64,000 nt of DNA, taken from NCBI GenBank assembly GCA_002269645.1, contig NIVC01001154.1:146077-210076 (forward strand), written 5' to 3'. The position numbers and the translations under genes were made by a program. The notes under the pieces were generated by a model. It was not told the origin of the DNA. It did not search any database and was given only the letters and a program-made list of their open reading frames with translations. This document shows, piece by piece, positions 2 through 41,588 of this stretch. The stretch's first letter is position 1. Each line of letters starts with the position of its first letter. The stretch comes from Macrostomum lignano (Eukaryota).

Positions 2-748
2 TTTACGTCTCAACTCTTTCAGCAAGTGGTGAAGATCCTCAACATCACGCAGATCTACACATCGACCTACAATCCGAAGGCGAACATGGTTGAAAGGTTT
101 CACCGCAACCTACACGAGATGATTACACACTTCGCGCATCAACAACCGGACGACTGGATCATCTATCTGCAAGCAGTAACAATGGCCTACAACAGCGCTA
201 TTCATCGATCAACGGACAATACGCCATTCTTTCTAATGTTTGGGCGAGACTTCCAGCCGCCAAACCTATTGGCACAGCAACTACTACCATCGCAATATGT
301 GGAAGTCCCGACGTCCATTCAAAAGTTCGTCACGCAACTACACCTCGCATGGAAAGTAGCCAAGCACAACATCGACAATCAGGTGGCTCTGACCACCGGC
401 ACCGACACGAGATCGACAACTCTGACAGCCGGCGACATCGTCTACCTGCACTATCCGCCACAACAGACGCACAAACACGCACAGAAGTACAAAGGACCAT
501 ATCGAGTGGTCCAACTAACGTCACCGACAACGGCACGCCTGGCCAATGTGCAAGATCCTCATCAGCACCAATTCTACGTGCACATTCATCGATTGAAAAG
601 GGTCAACACTGACACGGCGACATTTCTACCGTCACTTGACAATGCCGACCGCACGCGTTCGACAAACCGCCACATCGCAACGAAGCACGAGGAGACTCAA
701 ACAACGAACGAGAGCCAGCCGCACGGCTATAATCTGCGACCTCGTTAA
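2..748 (+). CDS. pol: Gypsy pol, integrase core and C-terminus (5'-partial)
   Basis: Frame open from the window start: FTSQLFQQ..TSTYNPKANMVERFHRNL (catalytic E region), W..YL..V..AYN...H.ST..TPFFLMFGR, GPY/F module (GDIVYL..KYKGPYRVV..VHIHRLKR), ending YNLRPR. Confidence 0.92.
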   Translation, partial: FTSQLFQQVVKILNITQIYTSTYNPKANMVERFHRNLHEMITHFAHQQPDDWIIYLQAVTMAYNSAIHRSTDNTPFFLMFGRDFQPPNLLAQQLLPSQYVEVPTSIQKFVTQLHLAWKVAKHNIDNQVALTTGTDTRSTTLTAGDIVYLHYPPQQTHKHAQKYKGPYRVVQLTSPTTARLANVQDPHQHQFYVHIHRLKRVNTDTATFLPSLDNADRTRSTNRHIATKHEETQTTNESQPHGYNLRPR

Positions 749-894
749 GTTGCGAAAACAAACCCGTGTAGAGACCGGGTCAGAATAGCTCTACAGCTTC
801 GCAAGCTTGTCGTAAGAGGCGACTAATCCGAGCGACTCCACAAGTGAACTCTACAATTGACTACATAACCGCAACTGACGCTTGGCTAACGACT

Positions 895-1563
895 ATGGGC
901 AATGCACAGTCTAGACTGGCGACCCAGCCACGGCAACTCTATGAATGCCCTGTCTGTTTGGAAGATGACCTGTATAAAAAACCACCAACCATTTGTATAA
1001 ATAATCATCGCATATGCGGCACTTGCTTGTGTGACGCGCATCATATCCAACACTGGCAAAGCTGCCCCCTATGTAGGAGTAGTCTGACGCAGTGCGCCTA
1101 TTGTTATTCGTGGCGCACCTTTCAATACTGTAATCAAAGTCATTTTATTTGCATGCAATGCTTGAAACGAACCGCTAGTAGGGGCATCATAGGATGCCCT
1201 ATGTGTAACAGTATGCCGAAGGACAGCACCTTCAAGAAGTGGTGTCGCATCAAGCCCGACGCCAATCGATGCTTACATGTTGATAATATTCGAACACTAC
1301 CCGCAATACGTATCGAACAGTTGCTAGAGTTTTGGCCAGTACCTCGTTTCGCTCGACGGTCACGCAATGAATTACTACCGTACGCACATAACAATCAAGG
1401 AATATTGCGTCATATGTTACCCCTGGATATAGAACGACATCTACGACAATTTTTGCATGCCCATCACGCGTTTCACTGGACATTGCACATATATTGCCAC
1501 GCGCTAAAAAGATTAATTTTGTCACGTAGTTATTTCATATGGCTTTTACGGTATACACAGTAG
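895..1563 (+). CDS. Retrotransposon cargo ORF A: tandem double RING (C3HC4, C-x3-H spacing) protein with N-terminal MGNAQS
   Basis: ATG at 895 in strong context (ACTATGG). RING1 is CPVC-x12-CINNH-x2-CGTC-x12-CPLC; RING2 is CAYC-x8-CNQSH-x2-CMQC-x11-CPMC. 222 aa, uninterrupted. Confidence 0.8.
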   Translation: MGNAQSRLATQPRQLYECPVCLEDDLYKKPPTICINNHRICGTCLCDAHHIQHWQSCPLCRSSLTQCAYCYSWRTFQYCNQSHFICMQCLKRTASRGIIGCPMCNSMPKDSTFKKWCRIKPDANRCLHVDNIRTLPAIRIEQLLEFWPVPRFARRSRNELLPYAHNNQGILRHMLPLDIERHLRQFLHAHHAFHWTLHIYCHALKRLILSRSYFIWLLRYTQ

Positions 1564-1617
1564 ACTGTATACTTCACCCTGACTGCTTTAATTACGATGA
1601 TTACATAAAACCCGCAG

Positions 1618-2256
1618 ATGGCCGAGAACAACGACGTATGCCCCTGCTGTCTCGAGACGCGGGACTATATGATCCCGACGTGTGAGTGGGGACACCGCGT
1701 GTGTGTCTCCTGCGACGCCATGGCGCAGCAGGTGGATGGCAATGTTACCATGCTATCTACCTGCCCGGTCTGCCGTCGCGCGCGGGCTACCTGTGTGGTA
1801 TGCGGCGAACAGCCCCATGTTCAGGTGTGTTCCAACCGACATTGGGTCTGTGCAAGCTGTCTCCGAAGGTACGGTGCAAGAGATATAGAGATCTGCACCG
1901 AATGTCTAGCTCCTGTCAACCATTCGACGGCGCTGATGTTGGCGACAATAACACCAGTGCCAGAGTTGACGTTGGCGGAGCCGGACAGCTTGACCTTCGA
2001 GCAATTGTCCATCGCCGTCCGGTCGTGGCCGTGGCCGCACCGGCATCAGGAGTCATGGCGTCACGTCCTTGGAATTTCCAGGAGCCTGGCTCGCGAGCAC
2101 CCAGGACTCACGAGTATTGACGCCTACCTGATGATACTCGAGCGCACAGAGGAACCGCGCTTCACACGCTTTCAGCCGACATTCTGGGCGGTGGCATGTC
2201 TGGCTGCGCGAACAGCGCAGCAGATATCCGCCGTGCTCAAAATCGGGTTCGGCTGA
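1618..2256 (+). CDS. Retrotransposon cargo ORF B: tandem double RING protein, paralogue of ORF A
   Basis: RING1 is CPCC-x10-CEWGH-x2-CVSC-x16-CPVC; RING2 is CVVC-x8-CSNRH-x2-CASC-x11-CTEC (RING2 spacing identical to ORF A). 212 aa, uninterrupted. Confidence 0.8.
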   Translation: MAENNDVCPCCLETRDYMIPTCEWGHRVCVSCDAMAQQVDGNVTMLSTCPVCRRARATCVVCGEQPHVQVCSNRHWVCASCLRRYGARDIEICTECLAPVNHSTALMLATITPVPELTLAEPDSLTFEQLSIAVRSWPWPHRHQESWRHVLGISRSLAREHPGLTSIDAYLMILERTEEPRFTRFQPTFWAVACLAARTAQQISAVLKIGFG

Positions 2257-2467
2257 TCGTCCGAGCGGCATCAACACAGGGGCAAGTGTCATCTGCATTT
2301 ATCAGACGATAACTTTCCATTAACTCTGACAAAACTAACTACTGATAATGTATACAATGTAACATACCGGCAATATAAATATATACAATATCAAGTTCAA
2401 GACGTTTCTGTAAATTTATATTTTTATTCAAACTCGGGACGAGTTTTTTCGTAAAAAAGGGAGATTT

Positions 2468-3279
2468 TGTAGAGTATTATATCTCCCAGAAAAGTTATTT
2501 AAAATTGTTAACGTACTACTTAAATAGTAGTAATTTGAGGAGCATGTATAAGGATATGCGCTGAACCATACATATATTCGAATTAACCAATAGAAAGAGA
2601 GAAATCTCGAGCATGCTAATTTTAGAAATCACCCAATCACGTGCGACCAACAACTGTCAATTCAAACCCCACCTTCAAGTCATCATTTGGTTTGCACTCG
2701 GGTTGCACCCGGATGAACCAATCAAAGTCTACCAGCTACGGTAACCAATCATGCGCTTTTACAGTAGACTAGTTGCGCAACTTTCTACCCTGTCATGCTT
2801 GACAGCCACCGAATCGTGACCCTTTGACATTTGCGAAGACAGTGATGTACGACCTCGAGAGAGGTCTGAACGCCTATAAATACAAGTGGTCCGGAACGGA
2901 CCCGGAGCCAAGAAATCTCCAAGGAGAGAAGCTCCGAAGAGGAAGCTCTAGTGAAGCCTTCCTGAAGAAACTCGCGTCGTGGACGAGTTCTTGCGGTAAG
3001 CCTTACTCATTTGCGCCCGTTGGTTGAGACGTCTCGCTCAAGTCTATTGAGACTTGAGTTTATTTGAGTCTGTTGAGACTCTTGAGTCTGTTTAGACTCC
3101 ACTGGTTGCAGTCTCCAGAAGGACTGCCCCTGATAGATCTTAGAAGACTATCAGTGGTTTCCGGAGCCATACCTAGAGTGCATAGAGGCACTACTAGAAG
3201 GAGTAGGCTTATATTAAACCGCAGATTGGCGCAGGGTACCCATTGTTGATTTGGAAGCTTCCCATTGGTCCGCACTACA
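2468..3279 (+). repeat. 3' LTR of Gypsy element 1 (812 bp)
   Basis: TGTAG...CTACA inverted termini directly after the PPT; several CCAAT boxes, TATAAATA near 2875 and an ATTAAA polyA-like signal near 3213. The partner 5' LTR is not in the window. Confidence 0.75.
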
Positions 3280-3616
3280 GATACCGGCCGGAAACGACTT
3301 CAGTGGACGTAAAGGAACGCGGACCTGGTTACGAACATAGACGTCTAACGAAGTTCGAGGTTCAAAGGAAGTCCGAGAATAACAGAACACGGAAGAGCTC
3401 TCAGAGACAGGACTCAAGGTAATACATACCTTCATTTGATTACTGGGTTGCCTAGCTACAGAGCTAGAAGTGATTGTTCCTTGATTACAGCTGAGGACTG
3501 GTAATAAGGAACACATCAATAGGAGAATCTATGTCGCAGAAAAAACGACAGTTTCAGCCAATAGTTCAGGATTAGTCAAGGTCAGATTAGCAGCAGGTAG
3601 TGAAACTAATTTCGGA

Positions 3617-6600
3617 GTGCCATCAGTTATTGAGCCACTCAGATCAGGATTGAAGACTAGAACAGAGAAAGTAACCGTAGTGCCAAGTTTAGTAACTCTA
3701 AGACAAGGGGAAGCTTATTTAGAAGTAATTAACACCAGTTCACAGGAAGCTAGAGTACCAGCATCAGCATTAGTTGGGATGGCCAAGCCACTCTTAGCTA
3801 GCGAGCTTAACTATCTGAAGGAACAGCCAGAAGAAGAGCAGAATAAGAACACGCAGTCTTGCGGAAGCAGAGAAAAGATCAGCCAGGTACAGGACAAGTC
3901 AGAAGACTGGATTAGTGAGATTAACATAGGAACTGAACTGACTCAGGAACAGAGACAAAAGGTGATCGAGGTCGTCAAGGAACATTCAGCAGCTTTCTCG
4001 CAGCACGAGTTAGACTTAGGCAGAACGCATTTAGTCACACATGAAATTATCTTGAAGGATAACAACCCAGTTCAGATACCAGCTAGAAAGATTCCACCTC
4101 ATTGGATCAAGGAGGTAGATGAGCAGTTAGATCTCATGTTGGCTAGAGGCATAATTAGGCCTAGTTACTCGCAGTACTCGACTCCATTAGTCATAGTACC
4201 TAAGAAAGACGGTTCGCTTAGATTAGTTAACGACTATCGAGCACTAAACAATAAATCGGAGTATTTTCCGTATCCAATAACTAATATCAATGAAACATTC
4301 TCATGTCTCCATGGAGCCAGTCAATTTTCTACGTTAGATCTATTTTCGGGATATTATCAGATAGCTCTTAGGGAAGAAGATAAGTGCAAGACTAGCTTTC
4401 CAACTTTACATCGAGGCTCGTTTGAGTACGAAGTATTGCCAATGGGACTGCAAGGAGCTCCAGGAACTTTTCAAAGGTGCATGAACTTAGTTCTTAAGGA
4501 CATTGCACAGAAGTTCGCCATAGCTTACTTAGACGATGTAATAGTTTATAGTGCAGACTTTGAATCGCATTTAGAACACCTGAAAGAAGTGCTCAAGAGA
4601 CTAATCCAAGCTAACATGAAACTAAAGGCTAAGAAATGTCACCTTTTCAAATCAGAATTACAATATCTAGGACACGTCATAGGCAAAACAGGAATTAAGA
4701 GAGATGCGTCGAAATTAGAATCAATTAGGAACTGGCCGAAACCTAAATCTGTGACAGAGCTTCGAAGTTTTCTCGGACTCTGTAATTACTATAGAAAATT
4801 CGTTAGAGATTTTGCCGAGGTAGCAGCACCACTCTGTGAGTTAACTAAGAAGAACATCAAGTGTATCCAGGACAAATGGACCAGGATTCATGATGAATGC
4901 TTCGAACTGTTGAAGGAACGGATGTGTTCCGAAGAAGTGCTTGCTTACCCAGAGTTCAATACAGACCCCCAAGTTTATTTTGTGTTAGACACTGATGCAT
5001 CAGATGTCAGAATTGGGGCGGTCTTGAATCAAGTTCAGAGCGACGGCATAGAAAGTCCGATCGCGTATTATAGTCGGAAGATGAGGCAGTCAGAAACTAG
5101 ATATCCGATTACGAGGAAGGAGCTTCTAGCGATTGTTGACTCGCTGAAGTATTTTAGATTTTACCTCGTAGGAAAACATTTTAAGGTGCGCACTGATCAC
5201 AATGCCCTAACCTGGTTGCTTCGCCAAACCGAACAGACAGGCATTTTAGGTCGTTGGATCGAAAGACTTTCTGAATTTGATTTTGAGATAGAACATAGGA
5301 GTGGCCCTAAACATGTGAATGCTGACGCTCTATCCAGGATCCCTGATCCTCAACCGGAAGAGATGTCCCCACATGCCAGGTCGCTAAGCTGTAGGGCAAC
5401 TGTGAATACAGACCCAGCATCAGCTTTTACTGTCAGCTCAGGCAATTCCGCGTTCGCTGAAACCTGTAGCTCGAGCAGTGGAGTTCCGTCATGCTGTTCG
5501 TCACAAGACACTGTCACGAACCGACACAATACTCCGATCTTTAGTAGCAGTAGGCTAGACAATAGACAGGGACAGGAGCCTAAAACCGGAAATCCGCCTG
5601 CATGCAATGCCCTGCTCAGTGACTATCTCCGTAGCCCAGTTCGCCGTGACCAATTGATCGCAGCACAGCTAGCCGATCCGGCGGTAGGCTTTGTTAGAAA
5701 ATTAATTGAGAATGACTCGCCTAAACCGACATTTCAAGAACGACTAGAGTTAACCCACGACTGTAGGAACCTCTTAGGTTACTACGAGTTGCTCAGAATT
5801 GAGGACGGCGTACTCAAAGTAGACTTATCTATGGGGCAGACTGATCCAAAGGTAGTGTTGCCCAAGTCTCTGGATAGTGAAGTCTTTCACCAATTCCATG
5901 ATTCACCGTTAGCGGGACACCTAGGTCGAGATAAAACTTATCAGAGAATTAAAATTCGATTTTGGAGGCCAGGATTAGCAACAGCAGTTGAACGCTACGT
6001 AGCCAAATGTAAATCATGCCTAGAAAGCAAAACTAGAAGAAGAATTAAGGCACCAATTCAGAACTATCCTGTAGTCGAACCGTTCGGTAGATTGCACATA
6101 GATCTAATAGGACCTATTGGCCAAACTAGCAAATCAGGAAACAAATATGTACTTTCAGTCATAGACAGTACTAGCAAATTTCCATTCGCATTCGCAATTA
6201 GGAATCAGAAGGCTAAAACAGTTATCAAAATTCTACAAGAACGAGTTTTCGCTGATTTTGGGATTCCACAATGGATTCACACAGACCAGGGAACACAGTT
6301 CACTGGTAGGGCCTTTAAGAAATTTTTAGACCTCTATGGCATTAGACACACTCGAACAACTAGTTATCATCCGCAGAGCAATGGCTTAGTAGAAAACCTT
6401 AATAAGCAGATTAAATCAATTCTCACCTGTTTACTGGAGAAGGAGCATTCCAACTGGGACGTTCTGTTGCCAGGTTGCATAACAGCTCTGAGAACCAGCA
6501 CGCACACTGCCACAGGATTTAGTCCGCACTATTTAGTCTTTGGACGAGAGGCCAGAATGCCCTGTGACAATGAGCTGAACGAGCCAAAGCAGTTTCAGGA

Positions 6601-7459
6601 CCTGCCATCTTATGTCCAGGAACATCAGCAGAATCTGCAGGAAGGCCAAGAACTAGCGAGAAAGAGATTAAAATTAGTGCAACAAAACCGTGAGCAGGAG
6701 TACTCTAACAAGCCTAAGCCGAAAACATTGCCTGTAGGAAGCTTAGTATTTATCAATAATCCAGTAATTGCTAACACAGAGGCTAACAAATTTCACAGAA
6801 AACAGAGGGCAGTTTACGAAATTGTAGAACAACTATCAGAAGTAGTCTTTAAGATTAGACCAGTTACCAGAAATAAGAAGGCCAGGAAGGAAGAACTTAT
6901 CATGCATAGAGACAATTTAATGAAAGTACCGCAAGCAGATTATCAGGAAGAAGAAGCTAGTACTAAACCAAAAGAACAGAAGAAACAATACGATAGGGAA
7001 CAGTTAGCCAATAGTCAGCCGAATGGGTACAATGACTCAGAAAGTGAAGACGAGTACGAAGACGCAGTGCAGTTTATGCCAGTGCAACATCAAAATAATG
7101 AGCAGTTTATGCCAGTGCAAAATCAAAATAATGTGCAGTTAGTGCCAAATCAACAAGTGCAACATCAAAATAATGAGCAGTTTATGCCAGTGCAAAATCA
7201 AAATAATGTGCAGTTAGTGCCAAATCAACAAGTGCAGCATCAAAATAATAATCTAAATAATTTAGTAGGTGTACACGGAGTTATGCCAGTACAATTAAAT
7301 AATAACAATAATAATTTAGGGATTAATTTAGAAGCTAGGCCAGCGAGAGAGCGTCATGCTCCAGATAGATTAACAGTCAGGCCAAATCAGAAAAGTTATG
7401 TGCAGAGGATAGCGGAGTTGTTTAACCCATTTAACCTCTTGCAGCCGAAATCCCAATAA
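3617..7459 (+). CDS. pol: Gypsy Pol: RT, RNase H, integrase
   Basis: RT motifs VPKKDGSLRLVNDYRALN, LDLFSGYYQI, PMGLQGAPGTFQR, YLDD; RNase H LDTDAS..ELLAI..TDH; integrase HHCC (H..AGHLG..C..C) and D-D-E (HIDLIG, TDQG, VENLN). The frame is open upstream to about 3490, so the true start is lost. Confidence 0.95.
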   Translation: MPSVIEPLRSGLKTRTEKVTVVPSLVTLRQGEAYLEVINTSSQEARVPASALVGMAKPLLASELNYLKEQPEEEQNKNTQSCGSREKISQVQDKSEDWISEINIGTELTQEQRQKVIEVVKEHSAAFSQHELDLGRTHLVTHEIILKDNNPVQIPARKIPPHWIKEVDEQLDLMLARGIIRPSYSQYSTPLVIVPKKDGSLRLVNDYRALNNKSEYFPYPITNINETFSCLHGASQFSTLDLFSGYYQIALREEDKCKTSFPTLHRGSFEYEVLPMGLQGAPGTFQRCMNLVLKDIAQKFAIAYLDDVIVYSADFESHLEHLKEVLKRLIQANMKLKAKKCHLFKSELQYLGHVIGKTGIKRDASKLESIRNWPKPKSVTELRSFLGLCNYYRKFVRDFAEVAAPLCELTKKNIKCIQDKWTRIHDECFELLKERMCSEEVLAYPEFNTDPQVYFVLDTDASDVRIGAVLNQVQSDGIESPIAYYSRKMRQSETRYPITRKELLAIVDSLKYFRFYLVGKHFKVRTDHNALTWLLRQTEQTGILGRWIERLSEFDFEIEHRSGPKHVNADALSRIPDPQPEEMSPHARSLSCRATVNTDPASAFTVSSGNSAFAETCSSSSGVPSCCSSQDTVTNRHNTPIFSSSRLDNRQGQEPKTGNPPACNALLSDYLRSPVRRDQLIAAQLADPAVGFVRKLIENDSPKPTFQERLELTHDCRNLLGYYELLRIEDGVLKVDLSMGQTDPKVVLPKSLDSEVFHQFHDSPLAGHLGRDKTYQRIKIRFWRPGLATAVERYVAKCKSCLESKTRRRIKAPIQNYPVVEPFGRLHIDLIGPIGQTSKSGNKYVLSVIDSTSKFPFAFAIRNQKAKTVIKILQERVFADFGIPQWIHTDQGTQFTGRAFKKFLDLYGIRHTRTTSYHPQSNGLVENLNKQIKSILTCLLEKEHSNWDVLLPGCITALRTSTHTATGFSPHYLVFGREARMPCDNELNEPKQFQDLPSYVQEHQQNLQEGQELARKRLKLVQQNREQEYSNKPKPKTLPVGSLVFINNPVIANTEANKFHRKQRAVYEIVEQLSEVVFKIRPVTRNKKARKEELIMHRDNLMKVPQADYQEEEASTKPKEQKKQYDREQLANSQPNGYNDSESEDEYEDAVQFMPVQHQNNEQFMPVQNQNNVQLVPNQQVQHQNNEQFMPVQNQNNVQLVPNQQVQHQNNNLNNLVGVHGVMPVQLNNNNNNLGINLEARPARERHAPDRLTVRPNQKSYVQRIAELFNPFNLLQPKSQ

Positions 7460-7462
7460 ATC

Positions 7463-8285
7463 ATGGCCGAAGCCCCTCTTCGGGTGTATCCAAGGAAACG
7501 CATCTATGGCCAAAGAAGAAGACAGGAGCAAGACGAGAATGAGCCCCCGCGAATTCGGGCCGCACAATTGGCAGAGCGTGAAGAATGCAAGAAGCAGAAA
7601 TTAGATCATCGGGAAGAGGAAGAGGGTAGGCTAACTATCGACGTAGACCTGGAAAAATTAGGAAGAGAGACGGAAAAAGCGGAAGCTGAATTTAGGGACG
7701 AGATGGCGCAATTCATGGAAGAAATCCGACAACAGGAAGAAGGGGTGGAACCCATTGATGAGCAGGAAGAGGCGGCCGCGGAAGAACCAAATCACCAGCC
7801 GGAGCAGTGTCCATCCGAGCAATGCCAGGCAGGGCAAGGCCAGCATGAGTCTACGCTCATCGATTACGCTACATTGCTCAGGGCAGATCTGGGTGATACG
7901 CCGGCTCCTAAAGAGACCAACGCCGAACGGCCGGATAGTCCCGGAACGCAGGCGCGGAAATTCCGCAATTGTCGTCGCGCCTTGAAGCGGGCTATCCTGG
8001 CTACAGGGAAAAACAGGACGATTCGAGGCGCAGCTACCGGACGCGTGCGTCCAGTTCTTGGCCACGGCGACCCCAGAGGAAGCAGTCCGATGCTTCGAGA
8101 TTGCCTGCTCATACTGTTTACAGTACGCCGAAGGGAGAGCGCGGGGTCCGACCAATATGAGAGCGACCACTGAGCAGCTGGAATTTTTCGCCAGACAATT
8201 CGACCCTACTCACCAGATGATCCCGATAAACGGATTACTGTATCTATCTACTCAAAACACCCAAAATCTCCGGCCAATCCATTAG
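7463..8285 (+). CDS. Extra ORF downstream of pol in Gypsy element 2 (acidic/basic protein; probable +1 frameshift near 7986)
   Basis: ATG lies 3 nt after the pol stop, in the same frame. Frame 2 is open to 8173; frame 3 is open 7986-8285 (LSWLQGKTGRFEAQLPDACVQFLA..CFEIACSYC). No recognised domain. Confidence 0.5.
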
Positions 8286-25130: not shown

Positions 25131-25904
25131 GACAAGGAAGCTACGTGCCTTCTGCACTTCCTCACTGTTCAAATCAAATTTAAAACGGATCTGAACATTG
25201 CAAACATTGATTTGAACTATTGAGCTATTTATAGCGCGGTACCATGAACTGACCATTAGGAGGCGTAGAGATGAGGTACATGTACATCTTCTAATAATTA
25301 TGTACTCACTATTGCCGTCCAATAAAAAAATCGCCGTTTCGATTTTGTGATAATGACTCATCTACACCGTCATTAAGCTGTCAAATCGCACGACACGTAT
25401 ATTTTACCGTTTTTTTCATACGTTGTAATTTCTCAGTATACATTGGACAAGGCAGATTTAGAGTAACTCTCTAACCCTCAGTTTGGCCAACCCAGGTTGC
25501 CAATGACGCGAAGTGTACAACGGCGCTCAGTATCCATGGGGTTGGGCTCTGCAGAGGCGGGTGTGAATCCATGCAATTGGGGCAGGGAAGTGCATGCGAG
25601 ACTCCTTCTGAAGTCGCGCGCCTGTACTCGCGTTTCCGTACTTGCAGTCTTACGGCTTCTCTTACCCCCGCGCTCGCGTGCTTCTAAAAATTGTCTGCTC
25701 TGAACTGCAGTGGCTGCACTGTGAGCATATAGGCTGCATAGTAGAAAGTTTTACCCCTGCAACAATTTACCTGGGAAAACACTGCTGTTACTGCTCAGGA
25801 CAGAAGGGTGAGACGCTGCGCATCAATAATATGGGAGGCCAAGCCGCTACAACTAAATATTAGTTCCTATATGTGAAAGCCATCGCAGCTTGATACCAGA
25901 AGCA

Positions 25905-28900
25905 ATGGGCACGACTGTAGAGGATGTGCTCACCTGTCCTGTGTGCTTGAGTCGCTTCACCGACCCCCGGCTGCTGCCCTGCCAGCACACCTTCTGTCTG
26001 CGGCCCTGTCTGGTGAACATCTACGACGAGTCAGTGCGGACAATCCGATGCCCGCTGTGCCGCGAGCTCAGCCGGGCTGCCCGAGGCCCGGAAAATTTGC
26101 CTCGGAACCTCACAGTCACGGCACTGCTTGGCGTGCAGCAGCAGCAACGTCAGCAGACGCCTCCGTCGCAGTCGCAATCGAATCGACGTCAAGTAGCTGA
26201 AAGCTCGACTGAGTCACCAGAGTCGGAGGTGGAACTGAGACGTCGTCTCGACGCATCGGCTAGTCGGCTGAGCGCCGCCGTGCCCGCCCTGCTTTCCGAG
26301 GCCGCCCGCCTTCGCTCCGTGGCCGCCGATATCGAGGCCTCCTCGGCCAGACAGAGCGCCCGGCTGGCTGCCGCTGTAGACTCACTCGCCGAGCAGCTGG
26401 CGGAGCGACGAGCGCAGCTGCTGGCCGACATCGCGGCGGCCTCGGCAAGCCGGCTGGAGTCCCTCTACGCCGCGCTGGACTCGCTGGAGGTGGAGGCGGC
26501 CAGCGCCAGCAGCTGCTGCGAGTCGCTGCCGCCGCCGGGAGCGCCAGTGGAAGAACTCCGTCGCCGACTGGACGCTTGCGAAGACGCCGCCAGGAGACTC
26601 GCCGGCGCCGCGGTCGCCGACTGGTCCGAGGTGGCGACCGATGTCGGCGGTTCTGCGGCGGTCGAGTTGCCGGTGAACGCGGAGCCAGTCAGCCGGGCCA
26701 TCGCGGCTTTGGGCCGCCAGTCGTCGCTGTCGGGCGGCGGCTACCCGGCGGAGCTGCTGGTGGCCAACAATTATCGGACGCCGTTGAATCCTCAGCGCGC
26801 CGGCAGTCGGCAGCAGCAGCCGCAGCGTCAGAGCCGAATTCCCGAGCGTCAAAATCTCTCCGCTTCGGATGACAGCCGAGGCGGCGGCGGCGGCGGCGGC
26901 GCATTCATAAGTTTTGCTAATCCGGCATTTCGCGGAAATCGACGACCGCCAAGACTGAGCTCCGACAACGCAACGTCTGGCGCGGCAGGCAGTGGCGCAG
27001 GCGAACGTGGAGTCGGAGCTGGAGGCGCAGGGGGTAGGGTTAACGCATCAAGACGAGCAGCGAATGCAGCAATCCGAAGGCAGGAACAACAGCAGCACAA
27101 TAATCAACAGCAACAGCAACAACAGCAGCAACAACAGCAGCAGCAACAACAGCAGCAGCAACAACAGCAGCAGCAACAACAGCAGCAGCAACAACAGCAG
27201 CAGCAACCGTCAGATGATGAGTCGCCTTCCTCGTCGGAACCGCATCAACAGCTGACAATGGTCCAGAGGTCGGGAACTTTTGTTCTGTCGCGCGCGAATC
27301 GACCGGTTGCATTTCAGGTTTGTTTTAGTGATTCGTTTTTTATTAATATTTGTTTCTTGGAAAATACTGAAACGCGAATTGACTGGCAGTCTATTCGAAT
27401 ACCCTGTCTGAACTCAACTCAAGCCTTCATTTAGCTTCGATCCCCAAATCCCCTCTCCAGGTGTCCCTGGACGGCAACGGCGACCCGTCGGACCTATCGG
27501 TGTCCGCCGGCGAGGACGCCTCCTATTTGGCTCGCAGCGCACCGTGTGGCGTCTTCGGCCTCGGGCCCAGCGCCGAGGTCGGCCAGCTGAGCGCGCCGCG
27601 CGGCATCGCGGCCTGTCCCCGCACCGGCGCCCTGTTCGTGGCCGACTCCAACAATCACCGACTGCAGGCTTTCTCTCTGACTGGCCAGGTTCGGCTGGCG
27701 TTCGGGCGGCGCGGCGCTGGTCCAGGAGAATTCGAGTGCGTCACCGGGGTGGCGGTGGACCCGGCTTCCCGGCGGGTGTTCGCCACGGACCGCTACAATC
27801 ACAAGGTGCTGGTGTTTGACTACCAGGTGAGGGTGTCAATTTTTATAGTGTACGTTCTAACTACAGATTCTATTCCATGCCACTCCGCGAAAACCCCGCT
27901 GTTCAGACCATAGACTGTAGCTTCTGCTGCTCTCCAGCATAAGTAGCAGCAACTACGAGGTGTCTGTGGCCCAACCCCCCCCCCCTGGGTTTTCGGGGCC
28001 TCGGAGACGGCCGCTAAATACATTAGCAAATGATGGAGTGACAAATCTAGGTAAATATAGAATCTGCAGTGGCTCTAACCGCTAGTTAAATGCTTGAATG
28101 ACCAAAGAAACATCGATATGTACATGTAGCTGCGGAATTTAGGTAGGATTGTTAGTAGCTGGTGTTGCTAATCATAACGAGAAGCGGTAGTTTAAGTATT
28201 TAAAAAGATCAGATTTTGGTAGCTTTTGACGATCGAAATGGGAATTTGGACAATCAAAACGGGACGCCATAGACATTAAAGCCAGGCCACAGATCGCACC
28301 TTAGTCATGAATTTAAGCAGTTTAGCAAAGTCTACTTAGGGAGGCTTGGCCATAGACTATAACTTTGGACATTCAATATGGGAAAAGCCATTGTCATTAA
28401 TTTTTGCGGGCTTAAGCGTCCCTTTTCCGGGCGTCAATGTGGCAATTCGTGCCTTGAATCGTCTATGGTATTGTCTATTTCAGTAATAGAGCGAAATAGA
28501 ACAACAGTGTGAAACAGAGACCAACAAATAACAGCAAAGTTTATGCGCTTATAAGCATGCAAAGAGAGACGATCAGTTAGTTAAATTAAATTAGTCTTTC
28601 AGGCCGTGGAAATCGAACGTACAATTTTGAAATGTTCCAGAGAAATTCACACTGACCGATGGAGCTGGCACAGCCTGCTCAACTTGTCCTTCAGCAAGAC
28701 GATCTCGAGCAAGGACGCTCGTCCTTTGTTCGCAGTGTCGAATAGAAGAAACGCAAATAATTAGCCAGAATCGACTTTGGAATTCGCAGCAGATCCGTTG
28801 ACAGTTTCATTTCTTCCAGAAAAGTCTTGAAGCGGCTCACATTGTCCTCCATCTGCCGGGCGGAGGAGTCCGGTATTCCATCTCGTTCAAGCTGATTTAA

Positions 28901-31900
28901 CTCTTGCATCACGTCCTCCGGAATGTCGAGAATCTCTTCTGATTCTATCTTGCGCGCAAATTCTTCGCTCAGTTCCTCCAAATACCGGCTGTTCGACTCG
29001 GATGATACCCACGCCAGCTCTTCGGTCGACATACCGGAAACCATTTCTCCCGGCAGATTGGAATAATTAATTAAATGGTTGATCATTTTCAGAACTCAAG
29101 CACAGCTTAGTCCTGACAGATTTGAAAAAATATACATTTAGCATTTTTCTAGCTCCTTCAGTTTTACTGTCCATCTCTAGACCTGGACCATCAAAACTTC
29201 GTCTATGGCCCAGAGCTCGCAAATCAAAAGAAAGAATGGCCATAGACATTTCAACTGCATTCTATGTAATAACACAGAGCCCGGAATTTTCGACATTGAT
29301 GCCCGGAAATCTCTTGCATTAATGACAATAATAATGTTACAGGGACTACTCAATTATCGGGACGGGAAACGGCCAAATCATGCAGAAAAAAGATGGAGGC
29401 CGATTTTCTCTGTTCTCTGCTGATCTTATGTTTTATCGCAAGAGCTTCAGCTTCTCACTATGTACACAAAATTTATCCCTCTTCAACTTCCTGTAGCCTG
29501 TTTCTACTCAAATAATTTCGGATAAATGCTAGGAGACATTTTATACAGTACCGCTTTAATACACAAACTCGATGCTTGATAAGCCAAGTGCATCTGTTGT
29601 AGAAGTCTATGGGAAACATTGAAGCAAGAAGTGAAAGCTTGTATTATACGAGAAGTTATGCAACATAAGATATAAGATTAACAAAACTGTTGTATATAGT
29701 CAATACATGTATACCAAGATTTGGAAAACGATCGCGCTAGAATACACACTATTGTGCACTAGAATTATTCAACAACACCAAATGCATAAGTACAAGAAAC
29801 ACAACATTCACAACTAGCATATAAATAACAATAAACACGATAAGAGCAAAAGGCAAGAGAACCACAAGCAAGTGCAAAACGCACATGAACCAGAACAAAC
29901 AAAGTAAGCATAACAAAGTATCCCAATAGTATTGGTTTTTGTATGCTAAGTGAGACATTTTTCAAGCAATCTGAGACTGAATAGCAAAAACACTATTGTC
30001 TATGGCCACCCCTCGCTGCAGCCCAGCTTTTTGGGATCGCCTTGCAAGCAAAGTGAGAAATTTTTTAAAGCTAAGTGAGAACCATATTGAAAACAAAGGC
30101 TGGGCTATGGCAAATCAACTGCGTCTAACAAGCAACGAGGATAGAGAGCGCCTGGTCAATGCCGTCTAAGATGAACAAGATCTGAACAAGAAGACGGCCT
30201 ATCGGATATGGAGTCGCTACGCAGCTACTGGTGAATTCCATGCGTTGCAACGGTGGCCGCAAGCCGCGGTCAACAAAAATGGACAAATATATAGTTTCCG
30301 ACAGTACATCATTTTGTAATTTCGTAAAACCACCCCTTTTTTCAATATGGTTCTCACTTAGCTTGAAAAATGTCTCACTTTACTTGCAAGGCGCGCCCAA
30401 AAAGCTGGGCTGCAGCGAGGGGTGGCCATAGACAATAGTGTTTTTGCTATTCAGTCTCAGATTGCTTGAAAAATTTCTCACTTAGCATGCAAAAACCAAT
30501 AGTAAGCAAATATATAAGCAATGCGACAAATCGAATTCGTAACCCAGTAGTCTCAGTCGGTATCAATCACGCTTATAAACGAGATGAACTGCGTAGCTTT
30601 GTGATTTTACAATCACTTGCGTCTGGTGTTTGTTCTGCAGTTTTGCAGTTTCGCACAAGTCCTTTGAAAAAGCAGTTTGATAGGCGACGAGTCACCGAAG
30701 TTGTATGAATGTCCTTGTCTGGAAAGAAATATTCGGCGATAGCATTGAATATCTGTTGCACACGGGTTGCACAGCTTGGTGAATATGATGTGAAGCTAGC
30801 ATAACAAAGGCGCGAGAATTGGAAAAGCCATTCTGGTGGATGCGCTAGCTTTCCACGGGAAACAAGCTCCGTAAATTCGCATGGTTCATTTCGTGCTGCT
30901 TCTGCGTCAGCGGGAATTCCTTCCTTTGCTGCAACGTAGCCTAGGTAGTTAAAACCAAAAAGATAAATGAAAGTAGATATATATACGAATATTATTATAC
31001 TCGTGCAAGAATACAAAATTGCTTGAAGAAGCAATTTGAAACCTGAAATGTAATGTAGGGCAGCATTCTCATGCGATGTCAAATTCTCCGCAGAAATGCA
31101 GCAACTGTCGACTGTCCCTAATTCCTCATCTGATAGTTGACTGTCGCAGCAGTGGCTCTGTTGGTGACTGAAGTCGGACAATTCAAGCGATGTAAAGAGC
31201 TTCATTCGTCTCAGTCGGGCGCTAAGAAAAACTTGTTCGACTGAAATAAAATAGTTGCCTCCACTCATTTGGCGATAGACTCCGAATTCACCTTCTAAAG
31301 GATCAGTGTTGAATTCAGATAGCAGAACATACTGCATAGCACCGGTTTCCAGCAGTTGGTGACACATTTCTACCACACCGAACAGACTGTTACATAATGC
31401 GTTTTTGGTCTCGGTCGTAAGGCATTGATGTCGACTTCGTCCTCTACCACCGCCACGTTCAGAGACACAGCCTGCGCCAAGGCACTTAAGAATACTAAAC
31501 GTTCGTCCGAAATCGAGGAAATTGGCTTTCGATCAGGATCGTTCAGTCGTATGTGCAAATAAGGGTTGCGGCAATTAACTGTTTTCCAAAACTTAACAAT
31601 AGATTCTACAAACTTTGCAGTATCGTGGAATCCATTGCACGCAAGAGCAGCTACTACCTTGTCATCGAATACCTGCAGAGCTAGAGAAACACAGGTTTTC
31701 TGAATTCCATTTGGGTAGCATGCCCCGTGAGTGAGATTTGTTCGTCTGACAACGTGGTTTTGTTCAGCCTTAAAGACATGAATGATGTGACTCCATTTCG
31801 CCGAAATGACTCTGTCGCATCCCGGAATTCGAAGTGCTATAGTCCCCTTCTGTTCAGTCTGCCAGTTGTTTCTTATCGATTTCAACAAGTGGACCATGTC

Positions 31901-34900
31901 ATTGATCATAAAAAATTGACTAGTCTGATTGACGTCTCGTCCAATCCAATCCTTGTTTTGCCGCTGATCTCTGAACAAATTAAAACATTTTCTGTTAGTA
32001 GGATGATTGTCGCAAACCAAAGCGAAAGCAGTACCACCATGCTTGTTGACCAACTCAATGCTTTGACTTAGTTGCTGTTTGAGAAATTCGGCTGTGAGTA
32101 GAAAAATTGGTATAAGGCGCAATATGAATGGTTTTCCACCCATTAGCGGCTTCAACATTATCGCCAGAATTGTCCGAGCAATTTTCGCCGAGTCGTCCTC
32201 CGCTTGTCCAAACAGATGTTTACATCTAAATCTGACAGATGGCTGCACGTACATCTCGTCAAATAGTAAAACGCAGTTCAGCTGGGTGCCGCGAAGTGCA
32301 GAAAAAACTGTTCGAATAGTTTCATCAGAATCGGCTGCAGTTCCAATCTCTCCAAGACCGGCCAAATTTGTACGGAGAGTTCTTTGATGTGGCAGTGGCA
32401 ACAGAGTGCGAAGTTGAGAGTAAGCCGAACTGCTGATTAAATAGATAAGAGTTGACTGCCTTAGTGTGGCAATGTCGTACCGACGACTCACTGGACTTGT
32501 AGAAATTAGCTGTAGTTGTGAAATTAAAAACTGTATCGATGGATTCGTGATGACAGTATTTTCTAATTCCAACACTTGAAGAAATGACGACGACATCGCT
32601 TTCAACTCATGCTGAACAGACAGTTGAAAATTCATGCATCGAACGATAATGGCATCGAGTTTTGAAAAATACTTCAATGTAGGCTGGAATCCTAGCAGAT
32701 CTCTCAGCGGAACCGGCGAATGATAGTGAAAAGCACGAGTTGCAAAGTTGGACGAAATAAAAATCTTGATCTTTAGTTCTCCGCTCGAATCCAAACCGAA
32801 CAAATAAACTTCTTCATTGCATAACGATACAAACAGCGAATGTTGAGCAACGATATCTGATGATTTGAGTGCAGAAACGAGCTCGCTCCAGCCTGGCAAA
32901 CTGTCGATTTTACGAAATTCTTCCAACTCGTCCGGTTTAAAATTTCTTTCGGCAGACAAAACGCGACGGACTTTTGGTTTTCTCGCTAATGCTAAAATTA
33001 TGGATGTAAGCAATGCGATGCAGAATCGTTTGTAGCTCGTATGTTGGTAGCACAATACGTGTACAGTTTATGTAGTGACAAATTCTCACATTTCGATTGA
33101 ACAAAACATGATGGGGGGGGAATTGCAACGTCAAAGACGGACGGCGGGTCGACAGGTCGCTCATATCTGCTGCGTTTTATCATTGGCACTGATATTGGCC
33201 AGTGCTTCTCGCATACTGCCATATGCGGTGTTGGATCCTGTAGAATTATGAGCGGTGTGCTACAGAAACAATACCTCGCAAAACTTGTCCTTCCGAACAA
33301 GAGAGACAATGCACTGTCTCTCCAACTTGCCCAGCAGAGAGTAAAATCACGAATTTCATTATTACCAGTTTACTACTCGACTCACCTTGATGACATTTGG
33401 TAGAGCCAGTCGCCATTTTTCCTTCTCTATAGGATCGTTTGGGAAAGTAAAGACTTTAACAGAAGTTTTTTTCGTTCAAATAGTTCGACTTGCATGATTG
33501 CACACAGCATTTCCTTGGCATGAATGCGAAAAAACGCAAAGCAAAATTATGACTATTTATTTGCATTCTATGGTATCAGTCCTTACCTTATAGGCCATCG
33601 TATAATACAAGCTTTCACTTCTTGCTTCAATGTTTCCCATAGACTTCTACAACAGATGCACTTGGCTTTTCAAGCATCGAGTTTGTGTATTAAAGCGGTA
33701 CTGTATAAAATGTCTCCTAGCATTTATCCGAAATTATTTGAGTAGAAACAGGCTACAGGAAGTTGAAGAGGGATAAATTTTGTGTACATAGTGAGAAGCT
33801 GAAGCTCTTGCGATAAAACATAAGATCAGCAGAGAACAGAGAAAATCGGCCTCCATCTTTTTTCTGCATGATTTGGCCGTTTCCCGTCCCGATAATTGAG
33901 TAGTCCCTGTAATGTTATGTTAATGTTAATATTAATGTTATATTCAATACGGGAATCGGACTGAGATTTTACAGCTCTCTGTCCCTCTCTCCCCTGTTTG
34001 TTCGTCTTTGGCCTGAAAGCGACCCCATTGAATAGCGCCACCAATTCCTGTAGCAGATCCGCCAGCAGCTGACTGATGCGATTGAACAAGGGTCAGCCAT
34101 CGCAAGAGCTGCAAGAATCTTGCAAATCAAGAAAAACAAGCGCATTCCGAATCGCTGCCAACTTTCGACTCGATGACAGAGTGCAGAATCCCTTCCTCGC
34201 GGTGGTCGTAAAGAAGGATTGTGCAAGGCCGATCAGGAAATGAGAGAATTCTTGCTTGAGAAACTCGATGAAAATCCTTTCCTGACGCTCAAGGAGTTCT
34301 GAGTTACTTTTGTTTGGCGTCCGGTAACGGGCACTTTGTTCACTTTTAAATATTCCAGTGGCCTTGAGATATGGAAAATACATTAAATTGGGCGAATTCC
34401 CATTTCGATAGTCCATTCCACATTCTATGGTTGGGTATTCCCAAGCCGCCCGAGTCTGTGGCCTGGCTTAATTAAACGTCTATAGCGTCCCGTTTTGACT
34501 GTTCAGATTCCCATTTAGATCGTCAAAAGCGATAGTAGAAATAATTTGGCTTTTGTAAAAGTATATAAAAGTGTTGCCTATTCGCTGCATGCATTTCGTA
34601 GAAAATGACACAGTATATACAAAATATTTACACGCTTTGAATTTTCCCATCAGGGGGAGTTCCTTCGCCAGTTCGGCGCTGAGGGTTCCGGGCCCGGCCA
34701 GTTCCGCTATCCATGGGGCGCCGCCGTCCACTCCGGCCACCTGTACGTGGCCGACAAAAAGAACCACCGAGTGCAGGTATTCGACTTGGACGGGCAATTT
34801 CTGTCCAGCTTCGGAGAGCACGGCCGCTCGGACGGCCAGTTGGACAATCCGCACTTTGTCTGCGTCAGGCCGGACGGAGCGTCTGCCTTGGTGTTCGTGT

Positions 34901-38585: not shown

Positions 38586-41588
<3,003 letters not shown>

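Follow-up and report, generated by a model that had tools for sequence, protein, structure and literature searches.

Two intact genes, designated A and B, lie behind the integrase of a Ty3/gypsy retrotransposon of Macrostomum lignano, and each encodes a protein with two back-to-back RING motifs and a helical C-terminal domain. They were found in the window, the whole 64,000-nucleotide stretch of DNA that was analyzed (C1154:146077-210076 of the M. lignano assembly, G000). The pair is cargo inside the LTRs, occurs family-wide, stems from an old duplication, evolves with dN/dS values well below 1, and is accompanied by a separate env. A and B are probably accessory genes, expressed from spliced mRNAs, whose products are predicted to attach ubiquitin, as RING E3 ligases, to host proteins that hold the element in check, with a benefit that would be delivered in trans. 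From conserved signals, we infer both the splicing and the ligase activity; that the substrate would be a host silencing or restriction factor is the least certain part of this reading.

Position of the genes within the element

On the forward strand, ORF A (895..1563; 222 aa) has RING1 at 946-1074 and RING2 at 1093-1206, and ORF B (1618..2256; 212 aa) has them at 1639-1773 and 1792-1905; a helical domain with a WP motif follows in each. The original prediction placed both ORFs, intact, between the integrase stop at 748 and the polypurine tract (PPT) and LTR that begin at 2453 and 2468, respectively, and these coordinates hold. It also gave each protein two C3HC4 motifs with all 16 metal ligands, and the motifs are complete in both A (RING1: C18, C21, C34, H38, C41, C44, C57, C60; RING2: C67, C70, C79, H83, C86, C89, C101, C104) and B (RING1: C8, C11, C22, H26, C29, C32, C49, C52; RING2: C59, C62, C71, H75, C78, C81, C93, C96). 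The RING1 and RING2 motifs are 6 residues apart, and a double motif arose by chance in 0 of 200,000 shuffles of either protein. Among sequences chosen as intact, the RING2 ligands are invariant in 19 of 19, and the rigid RING2 spacing already noticed in A and B, in full x2,x8,x3,x2,x2,x11,x2, is shared by 17 of 17 further paralogues; the WP of the helical domain is likewise invariant. As had also been proposed, A and B are diverged paralogues (29% identity over 137 aa, E=5e-14, in an alignment that takes in the WP motif) of different GC content (44.8% in A and 59.5% in B).

The element that hosts the two genes measures 11,834 bp from LTR to LTR. Its 5' LTR starts at C1154:137761, 10.8 kb upstream, and is 99.9% identical to the 3' LTR (2468..3518, forward strand; TG...CA, 1051 bp), which holds a TATA at 2875-2880. 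Within the window itself, the element comprises the 3' end of a gag-env-pol polyprotein (2..748, forward strand; the end of the integrase core and the C-terminal domain), the two genes, and the PPT (2453..2464, forward strand), whose position does not vary among the 14 elements with paired LTRs. The PBS is TGGTGATCTCGC (12 nt), and the target-site duplication (TSD; 3519..3522) reads ATAG at the 3' end and TTAG at the 5' end, with one mismatch. The element has inserted into the pol of another Gypsy, the two RTs being only 34% identical; the remainder of that interrupted pol (3523..7459, forward strand) is not part of the RING-carrying element. Directly 3' of its integrase stop, the interrupted Gypsy (3523-8173) has an acidic frame of 237 codons (7460-8173) that gave no Pfam match.

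The long ORF of the window copy is broken upstream of the window, and a 99%-identical copy at C669:13555-20994 has a single uninterrupted ORF of 2480 aa. It encodes, in this order, Gag, an acidic linker, a hydrophobic segment, a glycoprotein with RRRR and a transmembrane segment, PR, RT, RH, and IN, its Pfam matches following the PR-RT-RH-IN order of Ty3/gypsy. Its env-like part has hydrophobic segments at residues 602 and 1198 and the RRRR at 930; the glycoprotein sits between the Gag knuckle and the protease, as in gB-type errantiviruses, whose glycoprotein has a signal-like segment, a furin site and a transmembrane segment. Its match to PF24664 is weak (E=5.7e-5), the 21.7 bits falling short of the cut-off of 27. 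With env between gag and pol, the RING genes are thus additional to env and do not replace it. Insect errantiviruses keep env behind integrase, and the 'env position' originally assigned to A and B is right as to that slot, but with env encoded inside the gag-env-pol polyprotein, the two genes are no stand-in for it.

Elsewhere in the window, a host gene at 25857-27913 was recognized by eye from an N-terminal RING, a coiled region and NHL-like repeats; we take it to be of the TRIM-NHL type, and it is related to A and B only by its RING. Also by eye, exons of a PBX/extradenticle-like TALE homeobox gene were seen on the reverse strand (38586-41379), together with a DNA transposon at 29331-33918 that has 321-nt terminal inverted repeats (99%) and a P-element/THAP9-like transposase.

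Fold and ligase hallmarks of the encoded proteins

AlphaFold2 models, made with family alignments, consist of two hairpin-helix zinc modules followed by an all-helical C-terminus (pLDDT 90.6 and pTM 0.82 for B; 87.8 and 0.80 for A). RING1 superposed on RNF146 (Z 5.7, 2.1 Å, 49 residues) and on HHARI (Z 5.2, 1.8 Å, 46 residues), with middling Z-scores (under 8) that show fold and not function. The family profile found Ring1B (1.3e-5), SIAH1 (2.2e-5) and TRIM21 (7e-5) as its best solved structures. The fold comparison suggested at the outset bears out RING1, which models as a RING fold; Foldseek returned no match at E<=0.001 for either model. RING1 ends in a C-P/S-x-C-R type sequence, with the linchpin Arg in 20 of the 20 rows covering the position, again among sequences chosen as intact, and a hydrophobic residue (L, F or Y) follows Cys2 in 19 of 20; the residue after the last Cys is described as the linchpin that primes E2~ubiquitin in the relevant part of PMC12326332. 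At the corresponding position of RING2, Arg is found in 0 of 21 rows and Lys in 1 of 21. In the models, RING1 has a RING-HC fold with E3 hallmarks, and its ligase activity is predicted; only RING1 looks catalytic.

RING2 shows the same hairpin-helix pattern as RING1 in the models, and its best solved match was a weak one (TRIM32, E=0.003). Its rigid spacing and full set of ligands, coupled with that weak match, are as expected of a structural or binding module. For the helical domain, a profile search gave no convincing match (the best was a designed protein, E=0.0035), and a fold search reached a best Z of 5.9 among generic helical bundles; the domain may be a new substrate-binding module. 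ORF A of the window family starts with MGNxxS, presumably a myristoylation-type motif, and this start is not present in the A orthologues of the sister families.

The C-x3-H spacing of the RINGs had been read as that of Sina/SIAH ligases. The spacing is shared, and 24 of 27 family members match the Sina/SIAH RING-HC profile (PF21362) at E<=0.1, with a best value of 1.3e-9, but A and B score only 18 and 19.6 bits against the Pfam Sina_RING cut-off of 29.3 and match no other Sina domain. They differ further by a second RING and the helical domain, and neither SIAH zinc fingers nor a TRAF-like substrate-binding domain was detected. A RING-between-RING (RBR) ligase was considered and rejected, given the 6 residues between the motifs and no IBR match in Pfam. 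RING folds also serve proteins that are not ligases, such as arenavirus Z, which appears in the fold-match lists at Z 3.8-4.0. With Z and the viral RING E3s (ICP0, giant-virus RING proteins), A and B share a virus-encoded RING, and RING1 aligns at 2-3 Å; the likeness is confined to one RING, with no match at E<=0.001, and a mechanism shared with these viral proteins would be an analogy only.

Distribution, selection and loss of the cassette

Three sister families have genes of this architecture, two RINGs and a helical domain; the genes fall into five paralogue groups, and an element has at most three of them. Genome searches with the RINGs of A and with B gave at least 150 and at least 151 matches, respectively. 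The RTs of the sister families are ~81-82% identical, and family genes occupy the same 3' slot in each, two in C583 and C301 and three in C391, whose three are also those of C1063. It had been asked whether such genes always lie inside LTRs: each of the 14 elements whose two LTRs were paired has family genes, or what remains of them, between IN and the PPT. The LTR pairs of all 14 are 99.0-100% identical, and the TSD is an exact 4 bp in 11 and 5 bp in 1; the window copy has its one mismatch, and one tandem element has no TSD. At C669:1-22619, two tandem copies have one LTR in common. For gene clusters in all fetched stretches, 104 of 109 have an LTR, pol or cis-element of the clade within 1 kb on the same strand. 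A host gene outside the element was tried as an explanation for the other 5 and rejected, as 3 have a part of the clade within 4 kb and the last 2 represent one decayed A fragment of ~95 codons, with its ligands lost, beside an unrelated RT. This A-type fragment (L123:4896-5279 and C356:255095-255379) has the unrelated RT frame on the opposite strand, and it is possibly carried by another element type. No stand-alone host copy or host parent gene was found among the loci examined (109 clusters).

A tree of 25 proteins set the first-position genes (A group, 100/100) apart from the four other groups, and the separation of A and B thus predates that of the sister families. Outside G000, a profile search of 1.84 billion representatives recovered a gene model that bears the label Macrostomum lignano, along with five relatives, three of them full-length (E 8e-36 to 3e-33) and two partial; whatever else it matched was a generic RING, single or repeated. 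A fourth full-length relative came from a second search. One of the full-length public relatives falls with A in the tree and three fall on the B side. A single-sequence homologue search with A gave no match, and scans of metagenome and viral contigs with the A alignment yielded 82 and 97 pattern matches, none of which was confirmed as a relative. ESM Atlas gave only sub-0.9 matches for A, to giant-virus SAP/RING clusters, and no match for the helical domain of B. A 223-aa metagenome protein (P0011) has three tandem C-x3-H RING-like repeats between hydrophobic ends, with similar spacing and a different architecture.

Many subfamilies of the clade were also seen in dense arrays, with almost all copies of an array on one strand (C2121:1-70000, C1130:1-50000, C87:225001-285000, C272:355001-435000 and C1405:244001-284000), the copies often truncated or nested, an arrangement that resembles a uni-strand piRNA cluster or self-targeting hotspot. 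A distant gag-env-pol family (C1405:266524-267321 = L086:2524-3321; RT 40% identical, LTRs 99.9% identical) fills its 3' slot with an unrelated frame of 266 codons, which has no RING and matched Pfam only weakly.

The dN/dS calculation proposed in the original prediction was made by NG86 on four subfamilies compared pairwise. Values were 0.11-0.17 for A (5 of 6 pairs; one was saturated) and 0.19-0.31 for B (6 of 6 pairs), with pooled bootstrap 95% intervals of 0.09-0.18 and 0.17-0.31, the pairs not being independent and dS being near saturation. Constraint is seen in all three domains (RING1, RING2 and C-terminal), and no excess of amino-acid change of the kind an arms race might give was found at the gene or domain level. 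Ratios of 0.11-0.31 across dS up to 1.8 make it very improbable that A and B are passive cargo, a captured host RING sequence riding along and now decaying, as do the ligands, linchpin Arg and WP kept across all five paralogue groups at 20-36% identity, and the occurrence of full-length relatives in public assemblies but of no host parent gene among the loci examined. Passive carriage would agree with the truncated or broken cassette of the most numerous young subfamilies; contradicted by dN/dS for the history of the clade, it could still describe individual young lineages. The claim of a kept and duplicated E3-ligase cargo is thus upheld by its location inside the LTRs, its duplication, purifying selection and the E3 hallmarks of RING1, with the restriction that only this RING looks catalytic.

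In every scorable pair, dS of the cassette (0.82-1.82) exceeds that of RT (0.15-0.44) and IN (0.10-0.60), which indicates an exchange of old cassette alleles between pol backbones that are nearly identical; C1639 and C1310 have different cassettes, although their gag, env and pol do not differ. The cassette behaves like an old module passed around by recombination.

Reduced cassettes are common. Among the matches listed, ~21 copies (hand count) have a broken A, and ~15 plus ~7 have only a 124- or 144-aa A, which retains both RINGs and little or none of the helical domain, and no B; together they outnumber the dispersed two-gene copies among these matches (hand count). All 8 fetched copies of the C30 type have the same stop at codon 71 of A and no B, and the polyprotein of one of them runs uninterrupted for 2480 aa; in each of the 6 C102-type copies fetched, the cassette consists of the 124-aa A alone. 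A tie between loss of the cassette and loss of env was ruled out, as the C30-type copies have no B and keep env. C301 and 3 of 4 other C301-type copies have no RT and both genes intact. The broken or missing cassettes of recent copies imply that the cassette is not needed in cis for recent copying, and this, coupled with intact genes in RT-less copies, fits action in trans. Dispensability in cis is the main evidence against an essential role. None of the findings named beforehand as speaking against the prediction was made, with the caveat that the ORFs are broken or missing in many copies.

Expression signals and relation to known systems

Between the pol stop and ORF A lies a conserved non-coding element of 61 nt (763..823, forward strand) with three short predicted stems. 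Its 14 distinct variants in the fetched loci hardly differ between families that are saturated at RT synonymous sites; the 12 predicted pairs are kept in 11 aligned variants, in which no compensatory change was found, and Rfam gave no match for 700-3600. The heptamer with which the LTR starts, TGTAGAG, recurs in the loop of the first stem, and the element could serve as a signal for packaging or export. A candidate splice donor, GCG|GTAAG, is located in the 3' LTR (2995/2996, forward strand), the copy in the 5' LTR being the presumptive working one, and a G|GTAAG donor follows the LTR TATA by ~120 nt in 8 of 9 LTRs examined. Candidate acceptors on the same strand are CTACAG (791-796), inside the 61-nt element, and CAG (1615..1617), directly before the ATG of B. 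This CAG is found in five subfamilies with otherwise diverged spacers, and a YAG is situated within 3 nt of the ATG in C-type genes and one E-type gene; it is mostly missing from third-position genes. In gene model P0003, LTR-encoded ...RLGRVVA is joined to the B-type MNADDAC, matching a junction of the LTR donor to B, a junction that may be ab initio. Taken together, the conserved donor and acceptors point to candidate spliced mRNAs for A and B. Four contig runs compared with a 10-kb stretch, which ended ~90 nt before the predicted donor, look DNA-like and speak neither for nor against expression.

With a strong, conserved donor in its LTR, the retrotransposon faces the problem of exporting unspliced RNA; this, and the near-invariant structured element just upstream of A, would suit proteins that regulate the element's own life cycle, whether by Rev/CERV-like export of unspliced RNA via the 61 nt or by Z-like budding or ubiquitination of Gag or Env. 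A precedent exists in Cer1 of C. elegans, where CERV, a spliced 3'-slot protein with a Cys-rich loop, is described as an RNA-export factor in the relevant part of PMC10309623, and the MGNxxS start of A and the presence of Z among the fold matches agree with this alternative. It is nonetheless unlikely, since amplification went on in lineages whose A is broken and whose B is missing, with env, donor and cis-element retained, which would need complementation in trans, and since up to three deeply diverged paralogues suit several targets better than one RNA element. Moreover, the MGN start is missing from the A orthologues of sister families, and neither CERV nor Z is among the sequence matches listed.

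The reading that we prefer, of accessory ligases directed at host proteins, would run as follows. The LTR donor would be joined to the acceptor before each ORF, and A and B would be translated from spliced subgenomic mRNAs. RING1 would bind E2~ubiquitin, with RING2 and the helical domain serving as the substrate-binding or scaffold part, and the host protein limiting the element would be tagged with ubiquitin. The paralogues would differ in target or place, widening the target range, and A of the window family may be anchored to a membrane via its MGNxxS start. Acting in trans, the proteins would confer a benefit common to the copies, so lineages could drop the cassette and still copy themselves.

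The gB-type errantiviruses that PMC13524379 reports from nematodes, bryozoans and flatworms have this GAG-ENV-POL layout. With one of these, Platyhelminthes_Rhabditophora_Mlig_errantivirus_2, the window element shares the gag-env-pol order, a putatively class III-like glycoprotein (PF24664, weak here) and the identical 12-nt PBS. The LTR (~864 bp) and length (~10.6 kb) of that element resemble those of the short-cassette subfamilies, a match by features and not by sequence, and differ from the 11.8 kb, the 1051-bp LTR and the two intact accessory genes of the window element. In this source, neither 'RING' nor 'zinc finger' occurs in the main text, no 3' ORFs are given in the table, and the env alignment has no row for Mlig_errantivirus_2 (PMC13524379). 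Extra ORFs behind pol are already known from the ORF3s of bdelloids (PMC5408684) and from CERV (PMC10309623); like A and B, these are non-env genes, and theirs are expressed from spliced mRNA. Bdelloid ORF3s are DEDDy exonucleases, GDSL esterases or membrane proteins, and 'RING' occurs 0 times in the text covered (PMC5408684). Cer1 and the bdelloid elements use the 3' slot instead of env, whereas the window element has env too.

A precedent for the cargo comes from planarian elements. The RING+BIR module of Burro1 reportedly has Lee et al. 2026 as its source. Burro elements are gag-env-pol and hold ubiquitin- and apoptosis-related domains (PMC6431247, in part), and the module is reported to shield stem cells from caspase-mediated apoptosis (cited in PMC13465017). 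The window element is like Burro1/GYPSM1, a giant Gypsy, in its flatworm host, its env between gag and pol, and its ubiquitination cargo including a RING. The extras of Burro are mostly inside a polyprotein of ~4,900 aa, with the RING paired with a BIR of the IAP type (PMC6431247; PMC13465017), whereas those of the window family are separate ORFs of ~210 aa behind integrase, with tandem RINGs, an unmatched helical domain and several paralogues. Burro1 lends support to the proposal that the ligases help the host cell (by anti-apoptosis) or limit rival copies (by superinfection exclusion), with selection acting partly via the host; the many cassettes in same-strand clusters and the intact ones of RT-less copies agree with it. 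The proposal is nevertheless quite unlikely, given that the Pfam matches, examined for 27 members, include neither a BIR nor any other apoptosis domain, that clustered copies often have stops and frameshifts and are thus not obviously domesticated, and that no host copy stands alone among the loci examined.

The original prediction knew of no double-RING pair in an animal Gypsy. As regards RINGs in general, Burro1 is a precedent (PMC13465017); for a double-RING accessory family, no description was found in the literature, with Repbase, Dfam and the earlier M. lignano LTR classification outside the scope of that search, and 'RING' is not present in the covered part of the main text of PMC12801592. 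The family of two RINGs and a helical domain is apparently undescribed.

Complex retroviruses and large DNA viruses characteristically carry accessory genes that hijack ubiquitin against host defence; to our knowledge, such genes are hardly known from invertebrate LTR elements. A bolder version of the preferred reading, possible though doubtful, is that of an invertebrate 'complex retrovirus', an enveloped Ty3/gypsy clade in which a swappable, alternatively spliced E3 cassette of several paralogues would destroy host silencing factors as a public good, with cassette-less copies as cheaters and RT-less copies as helpers side by side in one genome; examples of targets would be the proteins of the piRNA pathway in stem cells. 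A and B are small, soluble and well-modelled proteins, borne by young multi-copy elements with natural variants of loss and retention. Given that transgenesis has been reported in Macrostomum lignano (PMC12801592, in part), their substrates can be found, and these would reveal the host factors that restrict an enveloped retrotransposon in a stem-cell-rich animal.
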